From positions 66,679-130,678 of IMG/VR virus record IMGVR_UViG_3300042305_002533: a stretch of 64,000 bases of DNA; one strand, given 5' to 3'. The stretch comes from a virus. The notes under the pieces are model-generated. The model made no database searches and was not told the origin of the DNA. It worked only from the letters and a program-made list of their open reading frames with translations. Both the position numbers and the translations under genes were made by a program. Within the stretch, counting starts at the first letter, position 1. Each line of letters begins with the position of its first letter. Shown here one piece after another: positions 100-64,000 of this stretch.

Positions 100-579
100 T
101 CAAATTTCGTCCTTGAAGTCTTCGGGGTCTTTGCCGAACTCTTCGATCGACGGCGCCACTTGTACACGGGAAAAACGGTCGCGCGCCGGTTGATGCTGCA
201 CCCGCGCAGGATCTGGTATTTTGCGGATAAACTCTTGACTTTGCCCGATCATCGCCCGGATAGACTTTTCGTTTTGAAGCCGCTCGGGAAGAGTCTCTGC
301 GGCATCAAGGACGCGGTCGGGCTCATTGCGAGCCTCACGTGGAGGCGCCGGGGGCGGGTCAAAGCGCCCGGCGCCTCTTGGCGTTTCTTCTTGCCGGGCG
401 GGCAGCGAATTCACGGCGTGAACTCGGATCCCGTCAACCTCTACGCTGACAGCCCCAAGCTCCTGATCGTAAAAGAGCCCGAACATCTCAGTGTCGGCCT
501 CGGGCACGTGAAACCCCTGGCGCGTGAGATACTCGCGCACCGCAAGAAGCACGTCATCTTGCGTCAGTGTTATTTTCAT
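100..579 (-). CDS. hypothetical protein
   Basis: 159-aa ORF with GGAGGA RBS, overlapping the 3' end of the helicase gene on the same strand. Confidence 0.7.
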   Translation of the reverse strand: MKITLTQDDVLLAVREYLTRQGFHVPEADTEMFGLFYDQELGAVSVEVDGIRVHAVNSLPARQEETPRGAGRFDPPPAPPREARNEPDRVLDAAETLPERLQNEKSIRAMIGQSQEFIRKIPDPARVQHQPARDRFSRVQVAPSIEEFGKDPEDFKDEI

Positions 580-2527
580 GGTCCTCCTTCAGTACGTTGA
601 GATACGCGGTGTTTGCCACCGGCTTGGCTACTTCAGCACTGTACTTACAGCCTTTGCGGAAAGGCCGAATCTCGTCGCGGGCGCAGTCATTCATACGCTC
701 ACAAGACGCGCATGAAATCCGCTCCAGCATGGTGTACGCCACGTTATCCTTAAACGCGAGCGTTCTCGCCAAAAAGCCGTCCAGAGCCTGGGGGTGCGTG
801 GACAGCAAGCGGTAAACAACCATGTTGCGCGTCTGCCCTGGGCGGTTATTGCGCTCAAGCGACTGCTTGTAGTGCGTCAGGTTCCAGGTCAGCGCATAAT
901 AAATCATGTAATTTGCGGCCGTGAGCGTAACGCCAACGCCGGAGCTTACCTGTCCGATGTACACTCGGCAGATTGGGTCAGTTTGAAAGCGGCGGCTTAG
1001 CTCTTCAATCCGGCTGGTCGTTGATCCGTCTACGCGAACGTATTCATAACCTGCGTCTGAAACGGCCGTCTCGATGTCATTGAGCTCCTCAAGGTACGTC
1101 GCCCAGACGATGACCTTGTTCGCGTCGTCATCAGACAGCACATTGCCCAAGAGCTCTTTGAACGTCGCAAGCTTCGGGTTGGAAAGTCGTTTTATGGTCG
1201 TAGGAGGTTTTTCTTTGTAAATGTGACACCGCTCCGTGTACGGGCGCACCCCAGTTTTAACGCAGCCCTGCACGTGCTCGCAGCCGTCACAGACGAGCGG
1301 GTCGGCGCCCTCAATGACGAAGCCTGAAACTAACTGCAAGAGCTTATTGACAAGGGCACCGCCGTGCGGGGTAGAAACCCCGCGCCCGCGTAAAGCGTTG
1401 GACTCCGCGTACGCAGCAAAATCTTTGAGCCGCGCAATGCTGGCGTCATACTCCCGCGCTTGCGCCGAGGACAGGTCGAAGGGCACGTCAATGAACGTAA
1501 CGGGCGGGAGGTCAATACACTCCTTCTTTTTCATGCGCGTCGCGATGCCTTCGACGCGCGCGTTCAGTTCATCCAGGTCGCGGTAGCCGTAGACCTGATG
1601 CTTATTGAACTTGGAATACACAAAGTGCTTTTGTTGATACGCGTACCAGGGCATGGGCATAAGCGCCGGCGAAAGAAAGCGCATCTGTGCATAGAGCTTG
1701 CCCGGATGATCAGCCGCTGTTCCCGAGAGCAAGTAGCGGCGGCACGCCTTGGCTGATAGCGTCAGCGCCGCCTGCGTTTGGGAGCTCTCATAGTTCCCGA
1801 TGGAGTGAGACTCGTCAGAGACAATCACCTGGTAGTCCAGGTCTTTCAGGCGCTTGGGGTGTTTATTTTTTGGGTCGAACTCAAGCCGCGCGCGGGCGTA
1901 GGAGAGCACAACGACGTCGGCGGTCTGGGCCGCCTCGTAGCTTTTGTCCGTACCGTCCCAGATAACTGCGCGCAAAGCGCCCTGTGTGCAGCGGCGGACT
2001 TCGTTAACCCACGTAGGCAGCACTACCGGAGGCGCCATCACCAACATGCGCTTGAGCTCGGGATTTTCACGGCGTGAAAGCCGGAAGCCGTCGATCATCG
2101 TACGCGTTTTGCCGGTGCCCATCTCCCAGAGAAAGAACGAACGCCACCACGCGGCGATGCGGCGGATGCCCAGTCTCTGGTGACGGTAAGGCTCAAACCC
2201 CTTGGGGAATTCAAAATCTTCGGGTAACTCGACCTCTTCGTTCTGGGCGTACGCCGACTTGGCGGCCCCCCAGACGTTGTCGGTCGCGCGCAAGTCATTT
2301 ACGAAAGAAAGCGCAGAGGCCGTCCACTCGAGGTCAGGCGCTAAAACTTTCAGATCGTGCGCTACCGAAAGCCCGAAAGGATAGTATGCTGGAAAGAGCC
2401 AGTCGGCTCCTGACTGCACGGCGCCGGTTACACGCCGCCAGGGATCAGGAGACACGCTCGTCGGCGTGATGCGCCAAACGGGCGTAAGATTTAGATGAAG
2501 GCCACTAACTTTCACGCTGGGTGCCAT
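554..2527 (-). CDS. SNF2/SF2-family helicase-ATPase
   Basis: Motif I EMGTGKT, motif II DESH, LLSGT, RVDGST, GVGVTLTAA, QSLERNNRPGQ; start uncertain (ATG 2527 or GTG 2551). Confidence 0.9.
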   Translation of the reverse strand: MAPSVKVSGLHLNLTPVWRITPTSVSPDPWRRVTGAVQSGADWLFPAYYPFGLSVAHDLKVLAPDLEWTASALSFVNDLRATDNVWGAAKSAYAQNEEVELPEDFEFPKGFEPYRHQRLGIRRIAAWWRSFFLWEMGTGKTRTMIDGFRLSRRENPELKRMLVMAPPVVLPTWVNEVRRCTQGALRAVIWDGTDKSYEAAQTADVVVLSYARARLEFDPKNKHPKRLKDLDYQVIVSDESHSIGNYESSQTQAALTLSAKACRRYLLSGTAADHPGKLYAQMRFLSPALMPMPWYAYQQKHFVYSKFNKHQVYGYRDLDELNARVEGIATRMKKKECIDLPPVTFIDVPFDLSSAQAREYDASIARLKDFAAYAESNALRGRGVSTPHGGALVNKLLQLVSGFVIEGADPLVCDGCEHVQGCVKTGVRPYTERCHIYKEKPPTTIKRLSNPKLATFKELLGNVLSDDDANKVIVWATYLEELNDIETAVSDAGYEYVRVDGSTTSRIEELSRRFQTDPICRVYIGQVSSGVGVTLTAANYMIYYALTWNLTHYKQSLERNNRPGQTRNMVVYRLLSTHPQALDGFLARTLAFKDNVAYTMLERISCASCERMNDCARDEIRPFRKGCKYSAEVAKPVANTAYLNVLKEDHENNTDAR

Positions 2528-4241: not shown

Positions 4242-4684
4242 GCGACGACTTCGGCAAATTTATCGATCAAGCGCAAACGGCAGACCGCGTCGAGAGCCGG
4301 TTTGCCGGGCTTGAATCTGAGCTAGAGGTTCACGCCGGGACCAAGAAGAAAGCCAAGTACACCTACGAGTGCCGGGTGTTCACGGTCTTTCGGCCTTGGC
4401 AGGAGTGTCATCGGTGCCAGAAAGCGTTTCGTCCAAAAAAGAACGCAGAAGGCCAGTGGGAAGACCCGGACCTGGAGATGCCGGAAGACGAAGACTACAT
4501 CTGCCCCCATAACGAGATGGCGGAGTACTCACAGCTCGTCAACAAGATTTCACGGGGTGAGGCGCGTCTGATTCGCCGCTCTTTGGAAACGCTGAAGACC
4601 GGCGTCGTGCAAGCGCTACTTGAATGGGGCGAGCCGAACTTCACGGACAAAAAAGAAGAGCCAGAGCCGTTTCCACGGCTCTGA
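4238..4684 (+). CDS. hypothetical protein
   Basis: 148 aa, ATGA overlap with portal stop, CHRC..CPH. Confidence 0.7.
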   Translation: MSDDFGKFIDQAQTADRVESRFAGLESELEVHAGTKKKAKYTYECRVFTVFRPWQECHRCQKAFRPKKNAEGQWEDPDLEMPEDEDYICPHNEMAEYSQLVNKISRGEARLIRRSLETLKTGVVQALLEWGEPNFTDKKEEPEPFPRL

Positions 4685-4988: not shown

Positions 4989-7900
4989 ATGACTCAGCTG
5001 ACGCCCGTACTCACCGACGCCGAAACGCTTCGCGGGAAGATTCACGAGAAGGTCACGGGCGCGCTTACCAACGTGTTCCCGATGGACCTCAAAGGGCGCA
5101 CGCTTGAGGTGAAGGACATCAAAGTCCATCACCGGGACTACTCGTCCGACGAGCAGAAGAAAGCCCTGCTGAGCGGCGACTCCCTGCAGACGCCGGTGAA
5201 GGGGACGTTGGTGCTCAAGGGCGCCGATGGGCGTGTGATCGACGAGGCGAAAAACTTTACCCTCGTCCACATCCCGTACATGACGCCACGGCACACCGTG
5301 ATCGCGGACGGCAACGAGTATCAGTTCGCAAATCAGATTCGCCGTAAGCCCGGCGTGTACACGCAGCGCGCCGAAAACGGAGAGCTCAAGACGATCTTCA
5401 ACACGGGTCGGGGCGATAACTTCAATCTCAGCTTCAACGAAGCCAAGGGCACGTTCTCGCTACAGTACGGAACGAGCAACATTCCGCTCTACGCAACCTT
5501 ACGGGGCTTGGGCGTAACGCACGACGAGATCTCCAAGCATCTCGGAGAAGGCGTCGCCAAGGCCAATCAAGTCGCGCACGAAAAGCACATTGATACGGCG
5601 ATCTCGAAGCTCTACCAGAAGCTCGAACACCCGGCCGTTTACGACCCGAAACTCCCGCACGTCGCCAAAGCCGAAGCGATCAAAAAGAAGTACAGCATCG
5701 CGTCGCTTGACCCGGACGTGACCGAGCACACGCTGGGGCAAGCGCACGACCGCGTAACCCCGACCGCGCTTCTTCACGCCGCGAAAAAGATGCTCGCCGT
5801 GCACAACGGCAAAATCCCGGTCGACGATACCGACTCGCTGACCTTCAAGACCTTCCACGCCGTCGATGACTTCCTGGCCGAGCGCATTCGTCTGACGGCG
5901 CGCACCTGGACGCCCAAAGCCAAGATGGCGTTCAGCGGCAAGAACAACATTCGTGAGGCGCTACGCCCCGCGCCCTTCTCGGATTCGATCCGCAAGTTCG
6001 TGACGACGTCGTCTTTGACGGCCGTGCCCAGCGGAATCAACCCGCTGGAGCTCATGGATCACGCCGTGAAAGTCACGTCGCTCGGAGAGGGCGGGATCAG
6101 CTCTGACCGTGCGATTCCTCTTGACGCCCGCATGACGCACGCGACGCACTTCGGGGCGCTTGATCCAATACGCACGCCTGAGTGTTTAACCGGCGACGCC
6201 GAAGTCTTTACCGCAACGGGCTGGAAGCGCGCTGACGCCCTTACAGAATCGGACGCCCTCGCTTGCCGGATCGACGGTCGCCTTGAGTTTCATAAACCCG
6301 AACGGCTGATTGCCGCGCACTATTCGGGCCCACTTCACGGCGTGAACACAGGGAAACTTGAGTACCTGGTCACTCCAAACCACCGCGTTTGGTGCGCTCC
6401 CGTAGACGCCGTGTACCCCCTTGATCAACCCCACGGAACTGGTTGGCGGTTTAGTCGCGCTGATGAAATTCACGCAAAACCTCGCGTATTTGATACTGGG
6501 CACGGCGCATTTATTGGAGCAGGGCCGGACACATTTCAACTGCCTGAAGTCGACGGCGCGCATAATGTGCGGAACGCCGGGCCTATCCCTATGCCGGATT
6601 GGGCAGCGTTCATGGGCTGGTACCTTTCCGAGGGCTCGATTGGTCGGCACGAAGGGCGCCTGACGCACGTCCTTATTTCCCAAGACCGCACGGCTAATCC
6701 CGACTGTTGTGATGCTATCGAAGCCCTACTTTCTAGGCTGCCGTTTGGCTGGAGGTATGACGCCGCTAGCCGGGCGTTCGCCATTAGCGGAAAACAGCTT
6801 GCGAGTTACTTAGAGCCTTTTGGTTTTTCCCAGGATAAGTACATTCCCGAGTCCTTCTTCAATACCTCTATTGAAGCCCGGGAAAATTTGCTTGAAGCCT
6901 TACTGTTGGGCGACGGGCGAATCAACAGCGTTCGGGCTACCGGCAAAAATTACAAACAGCAAGTGTTCTGCACTACGAGTGCCCGTCTTGCAGAAGGAGT
7001 TGAACGGTTAGCCATCTCTCTAGGAAAATCGCCTAGGACTCGTCGCTACTCAGATAAGCGAGAAGAGCGATATCTTGATACCTATGAAGTTCGCCTGCTC
7101 CGCGACCGGTATCGGCAAGCGGTTCCTAGAAAAGGCCACTACTACGTAAGGCTCCACGACGGGCTGGTGTATTGCGCCACCGTTCCGGGTGGGCTGATGT
7201 ACATCCGCTATGGCGCTGGGATTGGACACTGGTCCGGTAACTCAGGCCATGCCGGTGTAGACATCCGCGCAACCATCGCCGCGCACCGAGATGACCGGGG
7301 AAACTTCTACACGGCCATGAAGGACGTGAAGACCGGGAAACAGGTCTTCGTGCGAGCCGGCGACCTCGTCAAAAACGTCGTGGCGTTCCCCGGGCAAAAC
7401 CTCAAGGGGGGCGTCAAAGCGTTCGTCAACGGGAAGATTGAAGAAGTGCCGGGCTCACGGGTGACGCACGAGATGCTGCACCTGTCGCACCAGTACTCAC
7501 CGGCGACGAGCCTCATCCCGATGATTCACAACATCCAGGGCAACCGCGCGATCATGGGTTCCAAGATGGGAACTCAGGCGCTACCCCTGCTTGATCGGGA
7601 GACGCCCTACGTCCAGGTAAAGAGCCATCTGCCGGGCGAGGTGTCGTTTGAAAAGGTCTACGGGCATCTGACCGTGCCGACATCGCCGGTGCACGGGACG
7701 GTGGAGAAGATCCAGGACGGGTACATTTATATCCGGCCGCACGGGGAGAAGAAGGCCGAGGACCGCCCCGTCCTTGAGCAGCGGAAGCTCGGGCCGCACA
7801 CGTTCAACCTGGAGATGATGCGCCACCAGTTTGAAGACGCCCCTGGCAGGCTCACGACCCGGTCGGGCAACTGGGACTACGGACATCTCCCCGGCTACAC

Positions 7901-10967: not shown

Positions 10968-11559
10968 CATGTTGAGCGGGGGCCTGACTTCGACGTCGAT
11001 CAAGCGCCCAGGCGAGCCAATGATTCACGCCGTGAAAACGGAAGGCCCGCTCGGTAACCTGTTGAAGTCGATGGTCCCCGGGCCCTCGATGCACGTGATG
11101 CTCCGCGACATGGTGCCGTCGGCGATGAGCGGCGATGATTGCGGCTGCGACAACGTAGAAATCTTGAAGAAGCTGTCGTCCAAGAAGTACCAGCTGATCC
11201 TCGCGTACATTCATTACGGAGATCAACTACGGGCGCTCTACCGGGACGGCATCTACGAGCACTTTCAGGAGCACCTGGAAGAGGAGCGCGCCCAGCTCTA
11301 TCAGATCAACAAGAAGGTCACCGCCCTGGGGCATGACGCACCTTGTTGTCCGGGCGAAGTGCCGCCGGTGCCGCTCAACGACGCCAAGGCGATTTTTCGT
11401 GTCGCCCTGAAGATCGAAGAAGAATCGGTGCAACTCTGGTCCGATCTTTTCCGTCAAACCGACGACGACGTCGCCCTCAACGGCATGGCCCAGACGTATG
11501 CCCAGGAGTGCCAGGGGCACGCAGACGATCTGAAGCGCTATCTGCGGAGCTGTGAATGA
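10948..11559 (+). CDS. ferritin-like (bacterioferritin/Dps superfamily) protein
   Basis: EHFQEHLEEE, ALKIEEE and QECQGHADDL helices of a ferritin four-helix bundle in the C-terminal ~140 aa. Confidence 0.7.
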   Translation: MNRKLADMLSGGLTSTSIKRPGEPMIHAVKTEGPLGNLLKSMVPGPSMHVMLRDMVPSAMSGDDCGCDNVEILKKLSSKKYQLILAYIHYGDQLRALYRDGIYEHFQEHLEEERAQLYQINKKVTALGHDAPCCPGEVPPVPLNDAKAIFRVALKIEEESVQLWSDLFRQTDDDVALNGMAQTYAQECQGHADDLKRYLRSCE

Positions 11560-15028: not shown

Positions 15029-15933
15029 TGTACAACTTTCACGACGTGAAAATTGCAGCCGCTGAAGCGGCACTAAGCCGGTACGGGCTGGACAAGACAG
15101 CCACGATGGCTGACTTCCTCGCGGGGCTTAAACGCACCGGTCAAGGTGCGGGAGTCGGCGGAGCCGTTGGCGGAGTCCTGGGCGCGGCCAAGGGGTTATA
15201 TGAAGGCCCGGCGCGCGAAGACGGAGCCCCCGCAACCTTCTCCGAAAGATTGAGGGAGGCGGGGCGGCAGGGGCTTCGAACCGGCCTGCTGGGCGCGGCG
15301 GTAGGGGGCCTCCACGGCCTATCTAAAAAAGGTCCTGAGATGGGTCGTGGCGGAACCGGCGCCGAACCCAATCTCTTGCGGCGTTTGTTTACCGCAAAGA
15401 CCGGCCCGGGCGTGAGCCTCATTAAAGAGCTTCCCCGCGAGGTTGTTTTTGGAAGCCCCTTGACGCTCGCGCGCCAACACAACATTTTAACGAGGTATCT
15501 CGCGGGGCCCGGGGCGCCAATTACGGCCAAGCACCACCTTCAAGCCATCGGAAAAGGTTTCAAGAACTTTTACTGGAGCCCTAATATCGGCGCGAACACG
15601 CCTGGGGCGAAAGCGTGGCACTACTCCACCCAGGCGCTTAATTTAGGGCTAAGCGGTCTAGACCTGTACAACGCCGCCAAAACTGACGATCCAAATGTTC
15701 GTCGTGGTGACATCGCAAGCGCGGTTGCAGGCCTGGCCACTGCTCCGATTGCTAGCCGCCTTGGAATTCCGGGAGCTATTTTGAGTGACGCTATCCGAAC
15801 CGGGGCGCGAAAATTGGTTCAAAAAGACACTCCGCGATACACGCCAGAGTATGATCCTCAAGAACATCTTCTCTTGGCACTCAAAGGGCTGCGCGCTTAC
15901 GACGACGTAAACACGCTGCCGCCCTCGACCTAA
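15028..15933 (+). CDS. putative virion internal protein with glycine-zipper hairpin
   Basis: ATG overlaps the rpoC-like TGA; N-terminal AAEAALSRYGLDKTA, then GAGVGGAVGGVLG and GLLGAAVGG. Confidence 0.72.
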   Translation: MYNFHDVKIAAAEAALSRYGLDKTATMADFLAGLKRTGQGAGVGGAVGGVLGAAKGLYEGPAREDGAPATFSERLREAGRQGLRTGLLGAAVGGLHGLSKKGPEMGRGGTGAEPNLLRRLFTAKTGPGVSLIKELPREVVFGSPLTLARQHNILTRYLAGPGAPITAKHHLQAIGKGFKNFYWSPNIGANTPGAKAWHYSTQALNLGLSGLDLYNAAKTDDPNVRRGDIASAVAGLATAPIASRLGIPGAILSDAIRTGARKLVQKDTPRYTPEYDPQEHLLLALKGLRAYDDVNTLPPST

Positions 15934-18201: not shown

Positions 18202-20691
18202 ATGACGATGGAGTTCCCCCTTTCTCAGTCCCCGCGAACCCAAGGCTTCCAGATGCCCCAAGCGCCCGAGGACGAGAAAGACCTATTTACCCAGGGTTTC
18301 TCCGACCTGGCTTATCGCGCCTTCCAGAAGACGCAGCCGGAACTGGTCAGTAACGTCTTGACCTTTCGCGTGCTCGACGTTGATGCCGAGAGCGGTACGG
18401 GCATCGGCACGTTCATTCTGCAAAATGAGCAAGACATCGTCTTCGTGCCTTGTGTAGTGTCGGAAAACTCGGTCAAGCCGCTCGACCTGTTTTACTCAAG
18501 AAGCAACGACCGCTTCTACCCCTTTACAAGCGAGTGGCTCCGAGAATCGTCCAAAGACAACGTAAACCAGCTGGGCTCCGGAGTTCGCGCCCCGAAGAGC
18601 ATGCCCACAGACGTGGACATTCGTAACCTCGTCGTGCCCCCAACGACTGGGCGTTATAGCTACGCGTCGGACATGGAAGACGTCGCATGGCTTCCGTTCC
18701 TCGTAGCCGTTCGAAAAGAAAAGACGGCGGAGTTTGCCGGCGAACCTCGGTTTCTGGACCTGATCGGCGCGACCTCTAACGGGTTTAAGACCGCGTTCGC
18801 CAAAGTTCTCCACCGGCGCCCCAAAATCGCCAAGCTCTTTGCCGAATTTTACGGAGCGGAGAAGGTCGCCAACGCGATTTCGCGGCGTGAAAAAACGGCG
18901 CAGGAGCATCGGAAGGAAGTTCCGATGACAAAGAGCGTGGCGATCATGACCAACGCCACGCCCGTTGCGCAAATCAAGCGGGAGCTGAAGCCCGGAGAAG
19001 CGGCTCTGGCTTTTAAGCAGATCCGTCTCCACGGGTTTTATGTAAAAGACCCGCGCCCTGCGACCGACAGCATCTACTCGTTTGCCGAGTCAGACCTCTG
19101 CCTTCAACAGCCGACAGTTCCAGGAGTCTATAAGGTTTATTTGACGGCGGGCGGCGCCGAGCCCGCCATCATCATCCCCAAGCCGGTATCCGTGCATCGC
19201 CGACGAAGCGACGAAGCTCGCTTCCCGTATGGCTATTACCACGACGATCGCAACCGCGATTCGGGACTAAAACTTCGGCGCGGTTTCCTCGTGCTGTTTC
19301 AGGACGGGCGTTACGCGATCATGGACGACATGGTCGCCGAGCCCATCACGAACGTCGCACACAAGGAAGTGCAAGACTTCCTCGAAACGATGACTAAGCC
19401 CGCGCCGGCCAACGGGGAGTACGGCGTCCTTATTTCTGCCGACGACATGGACATCCGGGCGCTTGAGCCCATGGCGGCAGAGAACGTCGTAAGCACAAAA
19501 AACCGAACGACGTTCAATGGCGCGTACCATCACACGATCATCATGAACAAGAGCATGTCGGGTAACGGAATCGTTTACCCGCAGGACTCTGACACCCTGA
19601 TGGTGGCGGGAAGCTTTCGCTGGTTCAAGTGCGGAAAGCAGCTTGCCAACTCTGAAATTCTCGCTACGCCGGGTGCAGTCTTTCGGCTGGTTGAGTACGG
19701 GCTTCTGAAGCAGGGAGCTCAGAAAATTCTGGTAAAGAAGGCGGGCCTTAACTTCGTCGTCAACGCCGACGGCGCCGCGCTGCCTTCGCTCAAAGCCGTG
19801 GAGAAGGTCGCCAACGTTTACAACGTCAGCGTCAAAGAAGCCTCAGAGATTGTGACCCTGATCGGGGCGGGGCTTCCGATTTCAGCTTGGCGTGTAAAAA
19901 CGGCCCAGGGCGAATCACTAGATCCGAACGCACCGCCGGTTGACCCGAATGCGCAACAGGCCGCGCCACCTCCCCCACCGCCGCCCTCAGGCCTGGATCT
20001 CGCGACGCAAGAAAAGCTTCAGCAGATTCAATCTCAAATTGCTGCGCTGCAACAGATGCAGCAAATTTTGACGGAAGTTCAACAACGCGCGCAGATGATC
20101 GATCAGGGCGGCGGCGCCATGGCTGCTCCTGGCGCAGCGGCGGCCATGGCCGCAGGTCCGGGGATGATGGGCGGGCAGCCCGCCATGGCGCCTCCGGACA
20201 TGGGCGGGCAGATGCCACAAGGTCAACCGGGAATGGAGCAGGGGCAACCGGGAATGGAGCAGGGGCAACCGGGAATGGAGCAGGGGCAACCGGGAATGGA
20301 GCAGGGGCAACCCCCGCCTCCAGTCATGCCCGAGGGCCCGGTCTCCGAGCAGAACCTCGAACAACAAATGAATCCCAACTTCCTTCAAGACGCGGCATCG
20401 CTACAAGATGCTAGGATCTTCGACGCGGCCGCAATCGCCTCAATGGTCAAACAAAAAGGCATGCGGGACATCCTTCAGAACTACTTACCAAGCGTTGAAA
20501 AAGCCATGGATAACCTCGGGCGGATGCTTCTTCTTTTTTACATGAAAGAGGGAGAGATCAAGCAGCAAGTTGGCGCCGAGGTGTTTGAAGAGACCGAGAA
20601 CAAGATCCGGGACGTCTTCAGGGGCATGGGCGACGCGTTGCTCGCCCTCAAGCAGTACTCTGAGCCGCGCCTACCCGCAATGGCGCGATAA
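18202..20691 (+). CDS. large hypothetical virion-associated protein
   Basis: GAGGAG RBS before ATG 18202; KTA motifs; Pro/Gln/Met-rich C-terminal linker. Confidence 0.75.
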   Translation: MTMEFPLSQSPRTQGFQMPQAPEDEKDLFTQGFSDLAYRAFQKTQPELVSNVLTFRVLDVDAESGTGIGTFILQNEQDIVFVPCVVSENSVKPLDLFYSRSNDRFYPFTSEWLRESSKDNVNQLGSGVRAPKSMPTDVDIRNLVVPPTTGRYSYASDMEDVAWLPFLVAVRKEKTAEFAGEPRFLDLIGATSNGFKTAFAKVLHRRPKIAKLFAEFYGAEKVANAISRREKTAQEHRKEVPMTKSVAIMTNATPVAQIKRELKPGEAALAFKQIRLHGFYVKDPRPATDSIYSFAESDLCLQQPTVPGVYKVYLTAGGAEPAIIIPKPVSVHRRRSDEARFPYGYYHDDRNRDSGLKLRRGFLVLFQDGRYAIMDDMVAEPITNVAHKEVQDFLETMTKPAPANGEYGVLISADDMDIRALEPMAAENVVSTKNRTTFNGAYHHTIIMNKSMSGNGIVYPQDSDTLMVAGSFRWFKCGKQLANSEILATPGAVFRLVEYGLLKQGAQKILVKKAGLNFVVNADGAALPSLKAVEKVANVYNVSVKEASEIVTLIGAGLPISAWRVKTAQGESLDPNAPPVDPNAQQAAPPPPPPPSGLDLATQEKLQQIQSQIAALQQMQQILTEVQQRAQMIDQGGGAMAAPGAAAAMAAGPGMMGGQPAMAPPDMGGQMPQGQPGMEQGQPGMEQGQPGMEQGQPGMEQGQPPPPVMPEGPVSEQNLEQQMNPNFLQDAASLQDARIFDAAAIASMVKQKGMRDILQNYLPSVEKAMDNLGRMLLLFYMKEGEIKQQVGAEVFEETENKIRDVFRGMGDALLALKQYSEPRLPAMAR
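20224..20312 (+). repeat. 21-bp tandem repeat x4 (QPGMEQG)
   Basis: caaccgggaatggagcagggg repeated four times. Confidence 0.9.
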
Positions 20692-20702: not shown

Positions 20703-21413
20703 ATGCCCCCACTCCCGCCCGATCACCGTGCGCTCCGTATCATTGGCGAGGCGCGCCGGCAGGCTGAAACCCAGGCGCAAGACCCGCTAGAGCGAGAGCT
20801 TTTTCACTTCGTGAAAACCGGAGAGACCGCGTCGACGGAGCTCCGCGTTGCAGTAAATTTGTACGCCGACGCAGAGTTCCGACACATTCTTAACGCGTTG
20901 ATTTTAACCAACGCGAATGAGGAGCTAGTCACCGGTACCCTGGGCCTTCAACCGGCCAGCCTTGAGATCTACCGCCACTTTTTCTTTGACAGCACGGTAT
21001 TTGCCCACAATCTAGCTAAAACCCGCCACGTAAAGGAGTTAACCTGCTCCCCGGAGCTCAGGTATCTATACGAGCTTGCAATTGAGCGCGGCCCGATAGA
21101 ACTCCTGGACCGGTACCGAATCGGAACGCGCCCGCATATTGAGCCCGATGCGCTTATGAAAGACGCACTGGCCGACATGTGGGGCAAGTTCGTGACGCAC
21201 CGGGGGTATAGTGTCACCTCAGATACCGCAAAAGAAGCGTTGCGCTGGGGAGAAGCCGCGTTACGTACGGCCAAGGTGGTGCTTGAAACCGGTCGTGAAG
21301 AGCGCAAGGGCGCTAGCACGGTTGACGATTTGCGGATCGCCCTTGAAATCCGAAACCAAACCAAGAGCCTCGAAGACTTGGGCGTCACGGCTGACGACCT
21401 CGTCGTCGAGTAG
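20703..21413 (+). CDS. hypothetical protein
   Basis: 236-aa ORF in a contiguous + strand cluster. Confidence 0.72.
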   Translation: MPPLPPDHRALRIIGEARRQAETQAQDPLERELFHFVKTGETASTELRVAVNLYADAEFRHILNALILTNANEELVTGTLGLQPASLEIYRHFFFDSTVFAHNLAKTRHVKELTCSPELRYLYELAIERGPIELLDRYRIGTRPHIEPDALMKDALADMWGKFVTHRGYSVTSDTAKEALRWGEAALRTAKVVLETGREERKGASTVDDLRIALEIRNQTKSLEDLGVTADDLVVE

Positions 21414-34634: not shown

Positions 34635-34691
34635 GGCTTCACGCCGTGAAACGGCGCCTATCCTTGACGACGAACCTTCGGAGAACAGCAC

Positions 34692-37620: not shown

Positions 37621-38340
37621 ATGAGCGACTACCGGTATGACTACCTATTGGAGAGCCACTTCAAAAAAGAGGCGCTCCTAGGGGCTGCAATGAATGCCGG
37701 CCGGGCAGCAATGGCTGCTGCCCCGGGAGCGCTCACGGCAGTCAAAAACGTCGGCAGCGCCGTCGGTAATGCAGCGGGGAGCGTAGGCCGAGGCATAAAG
37801 AGCGTCGGTAGCGTAGGCGGAAACTTTTTGTCAGGCGCCTTTTTTGGAGGGCCCACCGCTAAAGCCACTACAACTGGGCGGTTGGCAAATTACGCCGGAA
37901 AAGCTACAGCCCTGGCGCCAATCGCTTCAACGGCGCTCCCCAGCGTTCATGCCGGGGGCGCCGGTGGCCCCAGCGCAAACTTACCATTTGCGCAGTTGGG
38001 CGGAAAAACTGCTGCGGCTTCACTCCGTGAAATGGCCTACGTGCACAACATGCAAAAGCATGCTGAGCACGGGGCGCTGGATAAAGCGTTGCATATCGCG
38101 CCGTACGCCGCATGGGCTATTGGCGCGGGGCTTGAAGACACGAGCATCGCCAAAAACTACCCAGTGCTCCCCAAACTCTTTAGTGGCGGGGCTTACGCCG
38201 GATACGCGCTGAACTCAATACGTAACGCGTACACAGACCCCAAAGAGCGCATCACCGGAGCCATAGACGCCTTCTCACTTATGGCAATGCTCGGCGCAGA
38301 CGTTGCGCGGTGGCGCCGCCCAGAACCTGTAAGCCACTAA
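37621..38340 (+). CDS. putative virion internal protein (KxA modules, hydrophobic)
   Basis: KEA, KTA and KHA motifs; Gly/Ala-rich; lies between sheath and tube genes. Confidence 0.6.
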   Translation: MSDYRYDYLLESHFKKEALLGAAMNAGRAAMAAAPGALTAVKNVGSAVGNAAGSVGRGIKSVGSVGGNFLSGAFFGGPTAKATTTGRLANYAGKATALAPIASTALPSVHAGGAGGPSANLPFAQLGGKTAAASLREMAYVHNMQKHAEHGALDKALHIAPYAAWAIGAGLEDTSIAKNYPVLPKLFSGGAYAGYALNSIRNAYTDPKERITGAIDAFSLMAMLGADVARWRRPEPVSH

Positions 38341-39149: not shown

Positions 39150-40688
39150 ATGGCCCCTCCTCGCCGACAGCGCCCTTCCGAACAGCTCCCCACCCGCCAA
39201 GACCCGCTGATTCCGAACCCCCAGAGCTTTGCTATGGGGGGTGCGGCCACGGCTGGCCCCGCGAACATCATCGAGCGGGGCGTGATCATGGCGGTAGACG
39301 CCCAACGCCAGATATACCGTGTTCGCCTCAACAGCGGGCGCACGCTGATGATGGCGCGAATCCGAAACCATCTTGGCGACGTAAATGTTCTCCCCGTGGG
39401 GGCCTTCGTCGCTGTTACCTTCGGGCTGGGGCTCCCATACATCATGGGGGTGCTGCCACCAGAATCGTCAAACACCCAAGAAGAAAACCCCATCACCGTG
39501 ACGGACACGGAAGGCTATGGGGGAAACGACCCGCTTTTAGCAAGAAACATGGGCGCTAGCTCCCGTGGGCGAGATGAGCCCCGAGACATGGTCCCGGGGG
39601 ACTTTGTAGGGCTCAGCCCCGACGGCGCCTCCGTCGCGGCGCTTCACGGAAAAGTCGCACAGATCCGGGGCTCGGCACTCGCCAAGGTTCAGGCTTTTGG
39701 CGACCGCGATCTCGTACAGATCGTGGCCGGTACGATACGGACGCTGTCGTGGATGGGCGAGTCCCGGATTGAAAATAACGACGGAAAGACTTCGTTCATT
39801 TGGCGCGGCGGCTGCGACCAGCTCTCCCAGACCGGCCCGGACGAAGAGCGATACACCATCAAGCTCGACGTCGGCGACACCGGAAACATGATCAAGCTCG
39901 AAGTCTGCAATCGCGAAAATCAAGCAGTCTTCAGGTTTCACGTCGACCCTCAAGGGCAGTGTGAGCTTTTTGCGGCTGGCGGCTTTAACCAGCACTCAGG
40001 GGCGGACGCCAATCAAACGCACCCGATCCGATACAACGGCACGACACAGACCGAAGTTACGGGAGGCGCTACGCGGACGGTGCAAGGGCCGGTGCAGGAA
40101 ACTCATCAAGCCAGTCGCACCGAAGAAGTCACCGAGAACTACAACCTGACCGTCGGCCAGGACTTCGTAGTTCAAGCCGGTCGGGACCTACGGCTGACCG
40201 CCAGCGGTAACGGTTACGAATTCATTACCGGCGACAAAACCTCAACGAGTAGCGGAGACTACAAGATGGAGGTTGTAACGCCGGGTAAGGTTCACGCCGT
40301 GAAAACAACGGCTGGCGAGGCGTCCGTCGAAACCGCCACCGGCAATTTCCGCGTGACGACACAGGGCGGACAAGTACTATTGGATGCCGGATTAGGCCTT
40401 GCCCGAGTGGAAGCCACTCAGATTGTTTTAGCCGCAGGGTCCGGCAGCATTGGGCTAAGCGCGCCCGCCGGCAGCATCACCATCGGTGACAACGCAAGTT
40501 CCGGCGCTACCAAGTGGGAGGAGCTGAACACGGCGATCCAGGCCATGGCGCAACAGATTTCTTCACTAAACGCTCTGGTCGCATCGCACGTTCATGGGGC
40601 TACCTCGACATCGGCGACGTTGGCCCCTCTCGCATCCCCTGTGAGCGTCAATCTCCAATCCGCGCGCAGTGGCGTCCGCCTAGGTTGA
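39150..40688 (+). CDS. baseplate central spike (gp5/GpV-like)
   Basis: N-terminal OB-like segment, 8-residue beta-helix repeats, C-terminal HVHG metal-binding tip. Confidence 0.7.
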   Translation: MAPPRRQRPSEQLPTRQDPLIPNPQSFAMGGAATAGPANIIERGVIMAVDAQRQIYRVRLNSGRTLMMARIRNHLGDVNVLPVGAFVAVTFGLGLPYIMGVLPPESSNTQEENPITVTDTEGYGGNDPLLARNMGASSRGRDEPRDMVPGDFVGLSPDGASVAALHGKVAQIRGSALAKVQAFGDRDLVQIVAGTIRTLSWMGESRIENNDGKTSFIWRGGCDQLSQTGPDEERYTIKLDVGDTGNMIKLEVCNRENQAVFRFHVDPQGQCELFAAGGFNQHSGADANQTHPIRYNGTTQTEVTGGATRTVQGPVQETHQASRTEEVTENYNLTVGQDFVVQAGRDLRLTASGNGYEFITGDKTSTSSGDYKMEVVTPGKVHAVKTTAGEASVETATGNFRVTTQGGQVLLDAGLGLARVEATQIVLAAGSGSIGLSAPAGSITIGDNASSGATKWEELNTAIQAMAQQISSLNALVASHVHGATSTSATLAPLASPVSVNLQSARSGVRLG

Positions 40689-43025: not shown

Positions 43026-43211
43026 ATGAGTGACCCGGACACGCCTCACGGCGTGAAAATTCTCGCGGCTGCGGGCGAGATGATTTTGAGAGTACACCGG
43101 CTAGAGTTATTGTCCAAACTCGCTCGCGCCAAAGCCCAAATGGACGCCATGGCAAAAGCTACAAAGGAGACCCCTCGTGACGTGGACATCGGAAACCCCG
43201 AGCGCTCCTGA
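43026..43211 (+). CDS. small hypothetical protein
   Basis: TATACT 7 nt upstream of ATG; 61 aa. Confidence 0.45.
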   Translation: MSDPDTPHGVKILAAAGEMILRVHRLELLSKLARAKAQMDAMAKATKETPRDVDIGNPERS

Positions 43212-49659: not shown

Positions 49660-50044
49660 CGCTCAGTTCCTTCCGGTCTACGGAAAGATAACGGATCAGC
49701 GCGGCAACCCGAACAAGGAACGCCCGGGCCGCTGTGTAGTCCTTGTTCAGAAGCGCGGCCTGCGCATTTCCGACATCAGCAGACAGCCCCAGCATCAAGT
49801 CGTTGAGCGGCGCCCGTTCCTCCTCGACCATGAAAAGGAGGTGGAGCGCGTGCATCGTGTGGTCAAACTCACGCCCGCGATCAACCGCCCGCGTAACATC
49901 CATCTCGTCGAGATCTCGCGTGCACTCACACTCCGGCATGGGCTCCCCGGTGGCATAACGCGGGTATTCAAGCGGGCTTCCACAACGCTCACACGTTCCA
50001 AAAACAATCGTACTCACTGTTTCACCGGGTGAAAAATCACGCAT
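49649..50044 (-). CDS. hypothetical protein (CxxC..CxC)
   Basis: 131 aa in an overlapping minus-strand cluster. Confidence 0.6.
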   Translation of the reverse strand: MRDFSPGETVSTIVFGTCERCGSPLEYPRYATGEPMPECECTRDLDEMDVTRAVDRGREFDHTMHALHLLFMVEEERAPLNDLMLGLSADVGNAQAALLNKDYTAARAFLVRVAALIRYLSVDRKELSDEP

Positions 50045-51270: not shown

Positions 51271-52539
51271 TCAGGCGGGCGAGATTGTCGATGCCGGCTC
51301 TGCTAGGTCTTTTTGTTTCTGCGTGGGGTTGAGCACTTCCTGCCCCGCCTGACCCGCCCGGTCGTAAAGATACTTCCCCGCGCGATACGCCCCGTAGGCG
51401 TAAGGCGTGTAGCCGATGGCTCGACCAAGGTGAGATGAAATTGGCTCCTTACTGAGGCCGGCTTGAAAGGCGGCTATGGGGTGCATGGCGGTGAGTGTTG
51501 CCATGTTTACGGCATCGGCCAGCGGCATGCTTATGTTTTCTAATCTAGACGCATGAAGCCGATCCCACAGCTGCCGTAACCGCCCGGGGCCTTCAGCTGA
51601 TTTCTGGAAGCTGTAGTTAGCGACCTTCATCGGCGCTCGATGCGCCGCTATGCTCTCCTGCAGCCGCGTAATAAACCCTGTTCGCGGTTGCTGCGCCAGA
51701 TAGCCCTCAAGCTCGTTCCAGTCCTTGAAATCTTTTCGATCTACCAGCGCCGCTCCCGGAGAGTGCGTATACTCCGGGAACCGCTTCTGGTAATCGTCCA
51801 TCTGCTCGGGCGTCAGGCCGACGAAATACTTGTAGTCGGCCAACCCCTTCTGTCCTGGCAACGTCTTGGTGAACCGCGAAATACCCCCCTTGAGGTCATC
51901 GCCGACGTAGAAGTCTGCCGAATCGCCATCGGGGCTCTTCACCCCAGGGAGATAACCGTAGTCGTATTTCGACTCAACACCGCCAACATTGAACCCCTTG
52001 GGGTACTCAATGTGGAACTCTTTGGGCCCAAACTGGCGGCGATATATCGTAGAGCGGTTCAGCGCCTGCTTCTCCTGGCCGTCCGGAGATTTCACGCCGT
52101 GAACCATTTTACCGAAACGGTCTTTGAGGTAGGGATAACTCGCCACGAGCGCAGCGGTAAGCGCCGCCCGGCCGAGCCCCTTCTTCAAAGGATCCCCAAG
52201 CTCGGACCTCAGAATCCCCATATCCAGACTGGGTTCGGCCGAGAGTACCTTTGCCGCCCTGGCGAGGTCTGGCAGGGCCGTCGAAAATCCGGCAGTGCCC
52301 GCAAGGGCTACGTGCAGCGGGTTGATCGAGGGCGGCTCCTCGGGCACCTCATCGGCCGCAATTTTGAATCGATAGCCGCTCATCTTCGGCATCGGCGGAC
52401 GCATCGAAGTCGCCGCTGACGACGGGGTGGGTACAGGCGGCATCGGCGGAGGCACGTTAGCCCCCGGAGAAGGCCCACCCATCGTCGGCATTCCCATGGG
52501 CTGCGGCATCGAGCCGCCGTTGGTCGCGTGTTTTCTCAT
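51271..52539 (-). CDS. modular KxA-delimited protein containing an InPase-like domain
   Basis: IEYPKG..YDYGYLPGVKSPDGDSADFYVG between EKQA and MKVA (about 51622-52062). Confidence 0.75.
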   Translation of the reverse strand: MRKHATNGGSMPQPMGMPTMGGPSPGANVPPPMPPVPTPSSAATSMRPPMPKMSGYRFKIAADEVPEEPPSINPLHVALAGTAGFSTALPDLARAAKVLSAEPSLDMGILRSELGDPLKKGLGRAALTAALVASYPYLKDRFGKMVHGVKSPDGQEKQALNRSTIYRRQFGPKEFHIEYPKGFNVGGVESKYDYGYLPGVKSPDGDSADFYVGDDLKGGISRFTKTLPGQKGLADYKYFVGLTPEQMDDYQKRFPEYTHSPGAALVDRKDFKDWNELEGYLAQQPRTGFITRLQESIAAHRAPMKVANYSFQKSAEGPGRLRQLWDRLHASRLENISMPLADAVNMATLTAMHPIAAFQAGLSKEPISSHLGRAIGYTPYAYGAYRAGKYLYDRAGQAGQEVLNPTQKQKDLAEPASTISPA

Positions 52540-53963: not shown

Positions 53964-54350
53964 ATGACGCGCGACGAACTCATCACCCAGCTCGAAAGCT
54001 ACGAAGACGAAATAACCCTGGCCGACGGCTTCGAAGCTGCGTTCATAGGTATCGGCGAACGTTGTGCGTCTGTGCCCGTAGCCATCTACGACTACCAAAA
54101 AGCGGTAGAGATCCTTTGCGTCCGTGACGGCATGGGCGAGGAAGAAGCCGACGAATTTATGCAGTTCAACGTGCTGGGCGCCTACGTAGGCGAAGCCACG
54201 CCGTGGTTTATCACGTGGAAAATTTCACGGCGCGAAACCGCTGAACCGAGAGACCTCGGGGGCGACGTCTCGGACACACCGCTCCAGGTCCTCGGCACGC
54301 CCAGTCCGACGAGCGGCGTCCCAGGAGGCGAGCCCCCGGGAGTGCCGTGA
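53964..54350 (+). CDS. conserved phage hypothetical protein
   Basis: ADGFEAAFIG..YD..DGM..EEADEF..FNVLGAYVGEATP pattern recognised from phage small proteins. Confidence 0.65.
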   Translation: MTRDELITQLESYEDEITLADGFEAAFIGIGERCASVPVAIYDYQKAVEILCVRDGMGEEEADEFMQFNVLGAYVGEATPWFITWKISRRETAEPRDLGGDVSDTPLQVLGTPSPTSGVPGGEPPGVP

Positions 54351-55420: not shown

Positions 55421-55989
55421 TGAACGCCACCGTCAGCGGGGTGGAGGTCGTTGAGAACCGGGGAAAGCGGGCGCCGCTCACCGAGCGTGCGAAGTTCGTC
55501 GTTGGCGTGCTGCCCGGCGCTTGACCAGCCGGCGTCCGACGGACAAGCAGGGACCAGAAGGTCGATCACGCTCCCGAGCGAGTCCACGACGCCGCCGAGC
55601 GTGTTGCCAATGGCGATGCCGTTGTCCGCGAGCACGCGCGCGAGCCCAAGAAGCGTGCGCTGCACACCCCCAGCAGCCGCATTGGCGAGACACTGCTCAC
55701 CGCCACGCTGCTCGTAGACGTCGATGGCGGACTGAAGCTCTCGGGCCGCGTCCGTTACGGCGTTAAGGGCGCGAGCGACCTGCGTCTTGGCCGGATCCGA
55801 AAGAAGGCTATTGGTAATGAGCTTCGCCGCCGGCACCGCCCAACGGATCGTCTGAAGCGCTTGCCGCGCCGTGAAGGTCCAGCCTGAAGGCGTTACCGCC
55901 GGGCCGCCGTCAACGGGCGGGTGGGGACCCGGGCAACCAACGAAAAGGGCGCCGCCAAGGGCGAGCGCGAGAAGGCTTTTACGCAGCAT
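55417..55989 (-). CDS. putative lipoprotein
   Basis: AGGAG RBS; MLRKSLLALALGGALFVG|C lipobox. Confidence 0.72.
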   Translation of the reverse strand: MLRKSLLALALGGALFVGCPGPHPPVDGGPAVTPSGWTFTARQALQTIRWAVPAAKLITNSLLSDPAKTQVARALNAVTDAARELQSAIDVYEQRGGEQCLANAAAGGVQRTLLGLARVLADNGIAIGNTLGGVVDSLGSVIDLLVPACPSDAGWSSAGQHANDELRTLGERRPLSPVLNDLHPADGGVQ

Positions 55990-56214
55990 AGGGCTCCTAG
56001 TTGGCGAGACGCACGCGCGTCTCCGGTTCGAGCAAAGATCCTGTCGCCTCCAGAGGCTCGTCGGCTTCCCGGATCTGCCCGAGGTCGCGCGCGACGATGG
56101 CAACGGAGACGGCGCAGGCTGCCGCAAGTTCGTCGACTCGACAACCCTTGGGGCTGGATTCGAGAATTCGCAGAAGCTTGACGACACGCGCGCCTGGGCG
56201 CGGAGAGGCAGATT

Positions 56215-56397
56215 TCACGCCGTGACAATCCTTTCTACCACCGCACCAGCCGGAATGCTTCCGATGCTCGTCGCGCTTCCGCGTGTGCCGTCTGTACGAC
56301 GGAAGTAGTAGGTGGTGATGGCGCCGAGCGGAACGCTCACGGAAGAAACGATGGGGTACGAAAACTGAGGGATGATCGCTGAGGGAAAGACAGCCAT
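56215..56397 (-). CDS. small hypothetical protein
   Basis: Same GAGGTAGATCATGGC leader as the upstream gene; 60 aa. Confidence 0.55.
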   Translation of the reverse strand: MAVFPSAIIPQFSYPIVSSVSVPLGAITTYYFRRTDGTRGSATSIGSIPAGAVVERIVTA

Positions 56398-56405
56398 GAT
56401 CTACC

Positions 56406-57374: not shown

Positions 57375-57384
57375 GATCTACCTC

Positions 57385-58317: not shown

Positions 58318-58321
58318 CGCA

Positions 58322-60053: not shown

Positions 60054-60086
60054 GCAGGAAGGATAAGATTCACGGCGTGAAAAGGC

Positions 60087-61691: not shown

Positions 61692-61730
61692 GGCTACAGT
61701 ATAATAGCGCGACTTCACTCCGTGAAAGAG

Positions 61731-62782: not shown

Positions 62783-62785
62783 GGG

Positions 62786-64000
62786 TTATCGGAAGAGGGT
62801 GGCGTCTTGTGCGGCGCGCCTTAGAAACTCCGTGCGAACTTCCGCAGGGGTACGGCCAGAGCTGACCATATTGAACATCGCATTTCGTACGTCCTTTGGC
62901 GCAAATCTACCGCCTGCCGCACCAAGAGCGCCTCCCGCGACAGTGCCAACAACGCCGCCTTTCAGGCCGCCTACCAAACCGCCCTTCAAGCGATTCGCAA
63001 AGCCGTCCTCGGCGTTGTAGGCGCCACGAACAGCCCCAATCACGCCTCCGAGCGTACTGCCGGTTGCGGCGCCAAAAGCTGAGCCCAGTCCAGTAGTAAG
63101 ATGATTAAACGTTTGCGTGGGGTCTTTTCCCGCAAGATACTTAAAAGTTTGCGGCGAAAAGGCCGCCGACTTCTCAAGCCCGTACGCCCTCAAAACGGCC
63201 AGTTGCGCTGCTTCTTTTACGTACTCCATCGCTTCCTTCCTCGCCTCGGCCGCCGCTTCCGTGTTCGCGACAAACTGCCGGCCCTCGCGACTACCCTCGC
63301 GCTTCTTGGCGTTGGTCGCCGCTCTTTCACCGGGTGAAAGTTTCTTCCAGGAGTCCTTGGGGAGGTACCGGGTTGTACCGCCCGGACGCTCGGCGGGCTT
63401 GCCGTCCGACGTGGTCCACTCCTGCTTGGTCCACTTCGAGAGCGACTTCTGGGCCTCGGACTTACCGCCCTTGTAGCCTCCGCCACGCTCTTTGTACTTC
63501 TGCGCGACGAGCTGCGCCTTGCGGGCAGACCACTGCCCGGGCTTTCCGCCATCGGACCCCGACATCACCTGCGACTTGATACGCTCGCGGAGGCCGGGTT
63601 TGGTGTAGTTGCCGGAAGACGATTCGTCGGCGGCGGTTTTCGACAAGAGATGATCTACTATCCGTGTGCCGAGAGCGTCGCCCTCAAATTCAACGCGCGC
63701 CTCTCGTAGCTGTGCCGGCGAAAGCCCCTGCAAATTGGACAAATAATTTTGGGCGTTTTTGTAGTCGCGAGTAGTTTTACCCTGGATTATTCCCGCCCGA
63801 TCTAAGTCTTGCATCCCAGCTTGCAAGTTCGACGCAACGCCCCCGCTCGGATATTCGCGATTCAAAAACTCGTTGTAATCTTTGACAGCGGGCTGCGCGG
63901 CGGTCTGAGGGGCGGGCGCAGCGGTCTGAGGGGCGGGCGCAGCGGTCTGAGGGGCGGGCGCAGCGGTCTGAGGGGCGGGCGCAGCGGTCTGAGGGGCGGG
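62786..64000 (-). CDS. modular putative internal protein (DUF5872-like module, tag, glycine zipper); 5' end outside the window
   Basis: Frame stays open from 63865 to the window edge; NYTKPGLRERIK..GGKPGQWSARKAQ module; AQLAVLRAYGLEKSA. Confidence 0.72.
   Translation of the reverse strand, partial: PAPQTAAPAPQTAAPAPQTAAPAPQTAAPAPQTAAQPAVKDYNEFLNREYPSGGVASNLQAGMQDLDRAGIIQGKTTRDYKNAQNYLSNLQGLSPAQLREARVEFEGDALGTRIVDHLLSKTAADESSSGNYTKPGLRERIKSQVMSGSDGGKPGQWSARKAQLVAQKYKERGGGYKGGKSEAQKSLSKWTKQEWTTSDGKPAERPGGTTRYLPKDSWKKLSPGERAATNAKKREGSREGRQFVANTEAAAEARKEAMEYVKEAAQLAVLRAYGLEKSAAFSPQTFKYLAGKDPTQTFNHLTTGLGSAFGAATGSTLGGVIGAVRGAYNAEDGFANRLKGGLVGGLKGGVVGTVAGGALGAAGGRFAPKDVRNAMFNMVSSGRTPAEVRTEFLRRAAQDATLFR
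63900..64000 (-). repeat. 21-bp tandem repeat (APAPQTA), at least 4.8 copies
   Basis: gcggtctgaggggcgggcgca repeated to the window edge. Confidence 0.9.

Follow-up and report, generated by a model that had tools for sequence, protein, structure and literature searches.

A stretch of viral DNA of 64,000 nucleotides (bases 66679-130678 of a 130,678-bp IMG/VR virus contig, G000; hereafter the window) carries the palindrome TTCAC-N3-GTGAA along its whole length. The first-pass annotation had listed 20 perfect and eight one-mismatch copies, and every one was found where it had been placed (Table 1). In 100 dinucleotide-preserving shuffles of the window, perfect copies averaged 0.05 and never exceeded one, and matches with up to one mismatch averaged 1.47, compared to 28 observed. 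The whole contig (59.7% G+C, estimated completeness 76%) contains 39 perfect copies and none of a back-to-front control pattern, and expectation from the half-site counts is 0.17, an over-representation of about 200-fold. The observation is confirmed as real and highly non-random. The register describing the sites best is a 6-1-6 palindrome, TTCACG-S-CGTGAA (S, G or C); the longer form TTCACG-N-CGTGAA is present in 23 of the 39 copies and the central base is G or C in 31. Read on the coding strand, the central base was G in 10, C in 12, T in five and A in two copies of G000, and G in 36 and C in 35 copies of the related genome G001, with no orientation bias. This symmetry matches the binding site of a dimer, as had been proposed at first, and differs from the stoperators of Cluster A mycobacteriophages, where dozens of short protein-binding sites are likewise spread across a phage genome (PMC4351075, discussion) but are asymmetric and oriented with transcription.

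A gene model built for the contig (131 genes, 94% coding) assigned 29 of the 39 copies to genes, where they occupy every relative position, and left 10 outside; in the window the split is 15 to 5. The intragenic copies of the window encode x-H-x-V-K/N in 11 cases and S-x-x-E in four. All peptides quoted earlier for these copies (IHAVK, FHDVK and FHGVK; SRRE, SPRE, SLRE and SPGE) were recovered, and two reading frames are in use, the third being closed because it would hold TGA. When codons were shuffled synonymously within genes (300 shuffles), a mean of 11.1 copies was left, including the 10 intergenic copies that had not been touched; therefore about one in-gene copy is expected compared to 29 observed, which upholds the view that the constraint acts on DNA and not on protein.

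The copies are also evenly placed. Gaps between perfect copies have a mean of 3311 bp in the window (coefficient of variation (CV) 0.47; P=0.0003 against uniform placement) and of 3341 bp in the contig (CV 0.54; P=0.00005 against uniform random placement). Fourteen one-mismatch copies of the contig lie on average 1956 bp from the nearest perfect copy, compared to 1078 bp for random positions (P=0.0002), so that they sit preferentially in the big gaps, and the regular spacing with near-matches in the larger gaps described by the first-pass annotation is borne out. Perfect and one-mismatch copies together have a mean gap of 2442 bp, a CV of 0.43 and a largest gap of 4690 bp. The mismatches of the 14 near-copies affect the outermost base (five) or the A of TTCAC (nine) and nothing else.

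A search for a ParB-like protein had been suggested along with the motif, and the gene for such a protein was found some 400 bp upstream of the window. A six-frame search with ParB_N (26.9 bits) led to a single open reading frame (ORF) of G000 with 352 amino acids, and also detected ORFs in the related contigs G005, G003 and, weakly, G002; BLASTP orthologues were found in G001, G002, G003, G004 and G005. The HTH_ParB domain covers residues 141-242 (Pfam E 1.6e-14, 54.3 bits, cut-off 22.6) and ParB_N residues 63-137, and hmmscan gave a weak KorB match in addition. Comparison with the PDB by phmmer led to Spo0J (1vz0, 5.7e-13), the ParB proteins of Caulobacter and Myxococcus, and Noc, with residues 63-244 and thus both domains aligned. 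Foldseek matched an AlphaFold2 model of the protein (mean predicted local distance difference test score (pLDDT) 71) to ParB, Noc and KorB structures, including ParB bound to cytidine triphosphate (CTP), with 9e-11 for 7bnr and a template modelling (TM) score of 0.75 for KorB 8qa9_B. The ParB boxes were detected as GRQRVRA at 97 and ENIKR at 134, GxxRxxA being present in nine of 11 orthologues and ENxxR in all 11; an N-terminal ParB_N fold with both boxes and a ParB-type helix-turn-helix downstream are among the marks of the ParB-CTPase family. No Pfam match was found in the C-terminal part. The tail (residues 286-352) is predicted to dimerise, with a homodimer score of 0.61 for two copies and 0.00 for the best control, agreement between runs in at least 57% of contacts and a partner pLDDT of at least 64; the mark applied was reached by 20 of 30 one-chain-pair proteins and by one of 23 proteins solved as single chains. 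As C-terminal dimers have already been solved for other members of the ParB family, the score may reflect likeness to known structures. Of the two components that define ParABS partition, a ParA-type AAA_31 gene was not found in G000, G001, G002, G003 and G005 (two of them complete genomes), and the 11 orthologues all lack [LFI]G[KR]G[LFI], the N-terminal motif that PMC12704722 gives for ParA binding. The neighbourhood of the parB-like gene includes the adjacent gene of a sigma-70-region-2 protein and genes for a PD-(D/E)XK nuclease, a family A DNA polymerase and a helicase.

In IMG/VR, 11 related loci were found. The closest long relative, G005 (51.7 kb, 78% identity in the polymerase), has 18 copies of TTCAC-N3-GTGAA, and more distant relatives, including the complete genomes G001 (172.9 kb) and G002 (186.8 kb), have none or one and carry TACG-N-CGTA instead. 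The lattices of all these relatives are 13-bp 6-1-6 palindromes around ACG-S-CGT, with the form TTCACG-S-CGTGAA in G000 and G005, TTTACG-S-CGTAAA in G003 (one arm often degenerate) and (CG/AA)TACG-S-CGTA(CG/TT) in G001, G002 and G004. Observed palindromes with this core, compared to the expectation from half-sites, number 18 v 0.09 in G005, 101 v 2.9 in G001, 90 v 3.0 in G002, 49 v 1.2 in G004 and 15 v 1.3 in G003. Three further long contigs, which were found via the ParB alignment and have an HTH_ParB match, were counted for TACG-N-CGTA and gave 24 v 3.4 (G006), 31 v 2.3 (G007) and 44 v 1.0 (G008). Hence an enriched lattice is present in nine of nine long ParB-bearing contigs, G003 being the weakest. 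Even spacing was observed in G000, G005, G001, G002 and G004 (CV 0.26-0.54, each P<1e-4), with a CV of 0.26 in G005 and of 0.45-0.54 in G001, G002 and G004. The complete genomes of Salmonella phage Arash and Vibrio phage D69 gave no HTH_ParB match, tblastn with the ParB protein matched no Arash-like phage, and neither genome has a lattice, the most repeated palindromes reaching 6 and 3 copies, respectively. Arash had been considered as a model phage and was rejected, as it has neither a ParB-like gene (tblastn, hidden Markov model) nor a lattice; it serves as a negative control only.

Among shorter ParB-bearing loci, 13 copies were counted in L059 and 15 in L064. A metagenome scan for more pairs of ParB and sites gave eight loci (three useful, all of the TTCAC type), and the metagenome loci L101, L102 and L103 hold five, two and one perfect copies, each with variants alongside. 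These three related contigs share a hybrid site, TGTACGCCGTGAA (L101 11537, L102 2007, L103 2162), and its distance downstream of the ParB gene is similar in each. The densest lattice was seen in L011 (26 kb of a 43.8-kb contig), with 15 copies of TTCAC-N3-GTGAA; most of these have a spacer other than G-S-C, often GCA/TGC, and the outer arms alone are retained. In G001, pairs of TACG-N-CGTA 21-52 bp apart were detected at 49889/49941, 139590/139614, 154418/154439 and 158670/158698. The first of them is situated some 400 bp upstream of the ParB gene of this phage (48324-49508, minus strand) and may serve in autoregulation or as a point of strong loading.

The fate of single sites could be followed between G000 and G005, which are collinear and 64-77% identical in nucleotides. 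Eleven of the 18 G005 sites are inside the alignment, eight of them at the exact orthologous place of a G000 site and three with no partner in G000. In the eight shared sites all ten arm bases are identical, and the spacer differs in five. Chance retention is 0.028 per site at 70% identity, and eight of 11 kept gives P=6e-11. Judged by this alignment, the site arms are under purifying selection, and conservation in relatives, proposed in the first-pass annotation as a check, is thereby seen in the arms while the spacer varies. For G001 and G002, sites of G000 were mapped through orthologous proteins (12 and 11 mappable). Four of the 11 in G002 are at most 3 bp from the centre of a TACG-N-CGTA (P=4e-8), as are two of the 12 in G001 (P=1e-3); the other mapped sites have no partner within 150 bp. 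In four genes, xTT CAC GNC GTG AAx of G000 (His-x-Val) is TAC GNC GTA (Tyr-x-Val) in relatives, namely in the RNA polymerase gene (window 6334), the genes at 26548 and 20803 and a RuvC-like gene upstream of the window, and a fifth in-place case (window 44334) is in a different frame. Both motif types occur together in L009 (22.8 kb), with four C-type, four T-type and two hybrid sites (TTCAC...GTAAA), evenly spaced, and in L010, with seven C-type, one T-type and one hybrid site; from their site composition both look like a relaxed-specificity intermediate between the two types. The mixed and in-place converted sites may be explained by a reader whose specificity drifted with the sites following, for which a host signal or chance seems inadequate. 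Four sequence subgroups of the ParB protein coincide with the site subtypes TTCACG, TTTACG, CGTACG and (CG/AA)TACG. A single specificity residue was also considered: where the ParB 'GHAR' helix has its His, sequences of the TTCACG group have K, most of the others V, A or H, and L061 has T; with four groups this is a lead only and was not adopted.

Table 1. Palindromic sites and other features of the window and of contig G000 (window coordinates unless marked contig; G005, G001 and G002 are related contigs).
Coordinates	Strand	Feature	Remarks
410..422		perfect site TTCACGGCGTGAA	in minus-strand gene, V-H-A-V-N
2066..2078		perfect site	in helicase gene; orthologous site present in G005
4549..4561		one-mismatch site TTCACGGGGTGAG	
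5773..5785		one-mismatch site TTCACGCCGCGAA	
6058..6070		one-mismatch site ATCACGCCGTGAA	
6334..6346		perfect site	RNA polymerase gene, L-H-G-V-N; G002 same codons CTG TAC GGC GTA CGT (L-Y-G-V-R)
11024..11036		perfect site	ferritin-like gene; orthologous site present in G005
15038..15050		perfect site	16 nt into gene; orthologous site present in G005
18879..18891		one-mismatch site TTCGCGGCGTGAA	within 5.8-kb gap between perfect copies
20803..20815		perfect site	F-H-F-V-K; G002 TAC GCC GTA site one codon off aligned codon
24064..24076		perfect site	25 nt into gene
26548..26560		perfect site	F-H-V-V-K; G001 same codons TAC GCC GTA
28450..28462		one-mismatch site TTCTCGGCGTGAA	
29793..29805		perfect site	orthologous site present in G005
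32572..32584		perfect site	orthologous site present in G005
34638..34650		perfect site	57-bp gap between same-strand genes; orthologous site present in G005
38019..38031		perfect site	S-L-R-E
40291..40303		perfect site	V-H-A-V-K
43045..43057		one-mismatch site CTCACGGCGTGAA	
44334..44346		perfect site	P-S-P-R-E; G002 GTA CGT CGT AC site one codon off aligned codon
47698..47710		perfect site	short gap 3' of amidase gene
50021..50033		perfect site	between two minus-strand genes
52091..52103		perfect site	in minus-strand gene
54224..54236		one-mismatch site	within 8-kb gap between perfect copies
56214..56226		one-mismatch site	within 8-kb gap between perfect copies
60069..60081		perfect site	between two minus-strand genes
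61714..61726		perfect site	between two minus-strand genes
63326..63338		perfect site	in minus-strand gene, S-P-G-E
contig 65214-66272	-	ParB-family protein gene	352 amino acids
554-2527	-	helicase ORF	helicase family match
4989-10967	+	RNA polymerase ORF	1992 amino acids
10948-11556	+	ferritin-like domain protein	Pfam E 3e-11
46896-47693	+	amidase_2 (likely lysin)	Pfam
48117-48671	-	thymidine kinase	Pfam
contig 46880-47464	-	RuvC-like resolvase	Pfam
contig 55393-58758	-	family A DNA polymerase	Pfam
contig 62274-63113	-	PD-(D/E)XK nuclease	Pfam
contig 4212	-	promoter-like motif	
contig 17976	-	promoter-like motif	
contig 53347	-	promoter-like motif	
contig 53781	-	promoter-like motif	
contig 54349	-	promoter-like motif	
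contig 54794	-	promoter-like motif	A-tract overlapped by one-mismatch palindrome at contig 54819
contig 113530	-	promoter-like motif	window 46852

Many studies of lake-water metagenomes have yielded contigs with DNA of the G000 phage. No GenBank phage was matched when 10 kb of the window were compared by megablast, and the nearest cultured phages by tblastn are Salmonella phage Arash (34.8% identity) and the Vibrio phages D69, D181 and D148. Arash is an orphan myovirus of 180.8 kb with particles that contain RNA polymerase subunits, a sigma factor and helicases (PMC10585845). Two separate regions of the large RNA polymerase ORF of the window match phage RNA polymerase beta families; a weak thymidylate-synthase-family match was also observed at residues 375-468, and the gene of the ferritin-like protein follows directly 3'. 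Pfam scans covered 50 and a PHROGs scan 10 of the 131 called genes, with few assignments. Seven promoter-like motifs were detected, each an A-tract followed after 14-15 nt by GGTATAAG. The nearest perfect palindrome to each of them is at least 802 bp away, and only one of 53 perfect and near copies, a near-copy, overlaps one of the seven, as expected if the sites are not classical operators. In one of four lake-water runs compared, a diverged strain was seen, with 336 differences across window 24001-44000 and several replaced segments, for example 37641-38017; none of the 40 differences listed is inside a site, a number too small to count as evidence.

The palindromes are probably the loading sites of the phage's own orphan ParB/KorB-like protein, arranged for coverage of the whole genome. 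A dimer of this protein would recognise TTCACG-S-CGTGAA through its ParB-type helix-turn-helix domains. If it behaves like ParB, Noc and KorB, the dimer would next form a closed clamp in a nucleotide-dependent manner and slide off the site. With sites retained every 2.5-3 kb, genes included, no part of the phage chromosome would be out of the clamp's reach. Binding, clamp loading and the purpose of the coverage are inferred. As a first guess, the coverage marks or organises the phage DNA, and long-range transcriptional control or shielding are the alternatives. The first-pass annotation had proposed the site of a dimeric protein that condenses, positions, protects or packages the genome and is no ordinary operator. 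The first part of this proposal agrees with the symmetry, the constraint at the DNA level, the ParB-like gene nearby and the distance of the sites from promoter-like motifs, while a choice among condensing, positioning, protecting and packaging does not follow from these data.

Among known systems, KorB with its OB sites on plasmid RK2 is by analogy the closest mechanism. KorB is a CTP-dependent sliding clamp of the ParB family which loads at OB (PMC11790492, PMC13768133), a 13-bp 6-1-6 palindrome with central G/C, core TTTAGCGGCTAAA, contained in the oligonucleotide GGGATATTTTAGCGGCTAAAAGGA (PMC11790492, methods). The sites of G003, TTTACG-S-CGTAAA, are a further likeness to OB, as is the dispersal of copies over the replicon with some far from promoters. 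Differences are that the replicon is a lytic-type large phage instead of an IncP plasmid, that no ParA/IncC-type gene was found (G000, G001, G002, G003 and G005), that the Glu of the GERR box is replaced, and that the 39-101 sites are evenly placed, 1.7-3.3 kb apart, and mostly intragenic. The closest orphan ParB with chromosome-wide sites is, again by comparison, Noc of Bacillus with its Noc-binding sites (NBS), a ParB paralogue with no ParA function and with palindromes scattered over the chromosome. The density of NBS is roughly one per 60 kb, compared to one site per 2-3 kb in the phage setting. Chromosomal ParB-parS is similar in that Spo0J and ParB are the best sequence matches, and the G000 arms TTTCAC/GTGAAA are identical to the half-sites of parS. 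It differs in that the half-sites are 3 bp apart here instead of abutting, the sites are not clustered at an origin, no canonical 16-bp parS with up to three mismatches was found in the window, and both ParA and the ParA-binding motif are missing as described above.

A comparable pattern has been reported for the non-temperate Cluster O mycobacteriophages (Corndog), with more than 30 genome-wide copies of the 17-bp dyad TGTTCGG-N3-CCGAACA, many of them intragenic and not tied to promoters, for which a dimeric binder was predicted (PMC4351075). These phages also encode a protein with a ParB-like domain (gp90); the function of the repeats is left open, and the sections consulted draw no link between repeats and ParB (PMC4351075). 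The two cases, compared by published description, differ in that the phage lineages are unrelated and the Cluster O arms are 7-3-7. The Cluster O palindrome shares the outer TGTT...AACA with parS. A survey of the ParB fold lists many orphan ParBs in phages, and the terms 'palindrom' and 'dispersed' have 0 occurrences in its text (PMC12704722). Searches of the literature, main texts only, turned up no lytic phage described as having an even lattice of ParB-type sites.

Several points weigh against loading of the phage ParB at these sites. Every link between protein and sites is correlative, and the match of ParB subgroups to site subtypes is no independent proof because shared ancestry alone yields the same pattern. 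The hmmscan score of ParB_N is just below the Pfam cut-off (24.4 compared to 26.3 bits). The Glu of the canonical GERR box, which ParB needs for CTP hydrolysis, is Arg in 11 of 11 orthologues, and the clamp cycle may therefore differ from that of known ParBs. As the contig is estimated to be 76% complete, the part that is missing could contain the gene of another reader, and other DNA-binding proteins could act at the sites because Pfam covered 50 of 131 genes with few families. In G003, 15 full sites in 90 kb are spaced nearly at random (CV 0.61, P=0.045), and the ParB-bearing loci L061 and L108 have two sites in 10.8 kb and none in 12.5 kb, respectively. Finally, copies outside genes are 4.3-fold commoner in G000 than the non-coding fraction of 6% predicts (P=8e-5), and an extragenic enrichment of 2.4- to 11-fold in G005, G001 and G002 fits a partly regulatory role too.

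This enrichment is an argument for the alternative that the sites are mainly KorB-like long-range operators, from which clamps would travel to promoters and there set the timing of phage transcription or silence it. The ParB gene adjoins that of the sigma-70-region-2 protein, a near-copy overlaps the A-tract of a promoter-like motif, and KorB acts in this way on RK2 (PMC11790492, PMC13768133). We nevertheless regard a mainly regulatory network as unlikely, since 29 of 39 sites are intragenic, at all relative positions, and none of the 39 perfect sites is within 800 bp of the promoter-like motifs; a clamp-locking partner like KorA or TrbA did not turn up in the Pfam scans, which were the only partner search. 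RK2 manages with twelve OB sites, and the even lattice therefore seems more than regulation needs.

Somewhat less likely again is a different dimeric DNA-binding protein of phage or host as the reader, for example a host chromosomal ParB that is titrated or borrowed through the parS-like half-sites of G000. Family assignments are lacking for most proteins of the phage, an estimated 24% of its genome is missing, and Pseudomonas ParB is reported to bind many parS-related motifs (PMC5961200). On the other hand, the TACG-type arms of the relatives are not parS-like and yet all these relatives carry the phage ParB gene, relatives with no ParB have no lattice, and canonical parS is absent from the window as noted. 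The conversion of sites in place further suggests a reader that was inherited with the phage.

The motif could also be the target of some other DNA transaction: it might be modified site-specifically, nicked or cut as by a restriction enzyme, or act on a helicase-nuclease in the manner of Chi. This appears improbable. Known Chi and nick sites are asymmetric, and a restriction-modification target would be expected to show avoidance or indifference and not an over-representation of about 200-fold. The even spacing would suit a protective Chi-like signal, and the ParB gene does belong to a module with the PD-(D/E)XK nuclease, helicases and the family A DNA polymerase. Phage ParB-like proteins can also activate DNA-modifying dioxygenases, but those described are devoid of a DNA-binding domain (PMC13229309), whereas the G000 protein has HTH_ParB. 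Six-frame searches of G000, G001, G002, G003 and G005 detected no C5 methylase (PF00145), N6/N4 methylase (PF01555) or Tet/JBP dioxygenase (PF12851), the latter a further difference from the ParB-activated thymine dioxygenase system. An RNA or single-stranded DNA hairpin serving as processing, termination or priming signal is very improbable: either strand of TTCAC-N3-GTGAA could pair into a stem of 5 bp closed by a loop of 3 nt, but TACG-S-CGTA at the same places in relatives cannot fold because its stem would be 4 bp and its loop 1 nt, the spacer varies freely, no U-tract is present 3' of the sites, and the sites occur in both coding orientations with no bias.

Roles already established for ParB-family clamps are the segregation of chromosomes and plasmids, nucleoid occlusion and the silencing of plasmid genes. 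Beyond the assignment of the phage ParB as reader, it is conceivable, though in our estimate doubtful, that a clade of virulent phages carrying their own RNA polymerase has made a segregation clamp into a whole-genome coat. A ParB without the hydrolysis Glu, loaded every 2-3 kb, would then mark, gather or shield all and only phage DNA during infection, and sites and reader would have co-evolved via a promiscuous intermediate, with dozens of sites rewritten in place and His/Tyr changes forced on essential proteins such as RNA polymerase. The clade is a natural series for the joint change in specificity of a DNA-binding protein and its 40-100 sites, with pure C, pure T, mixed and hybrid lattices, and the repeats of the Cluster O mycobacteriophages may have the same explanation. 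If true, ParB-type sites tiled over the whole genome of a lytic phage would represent a new use of the clamp, either as a protein-based discrimination of self from host DNA or as a shell-less factory for replication and packaging.

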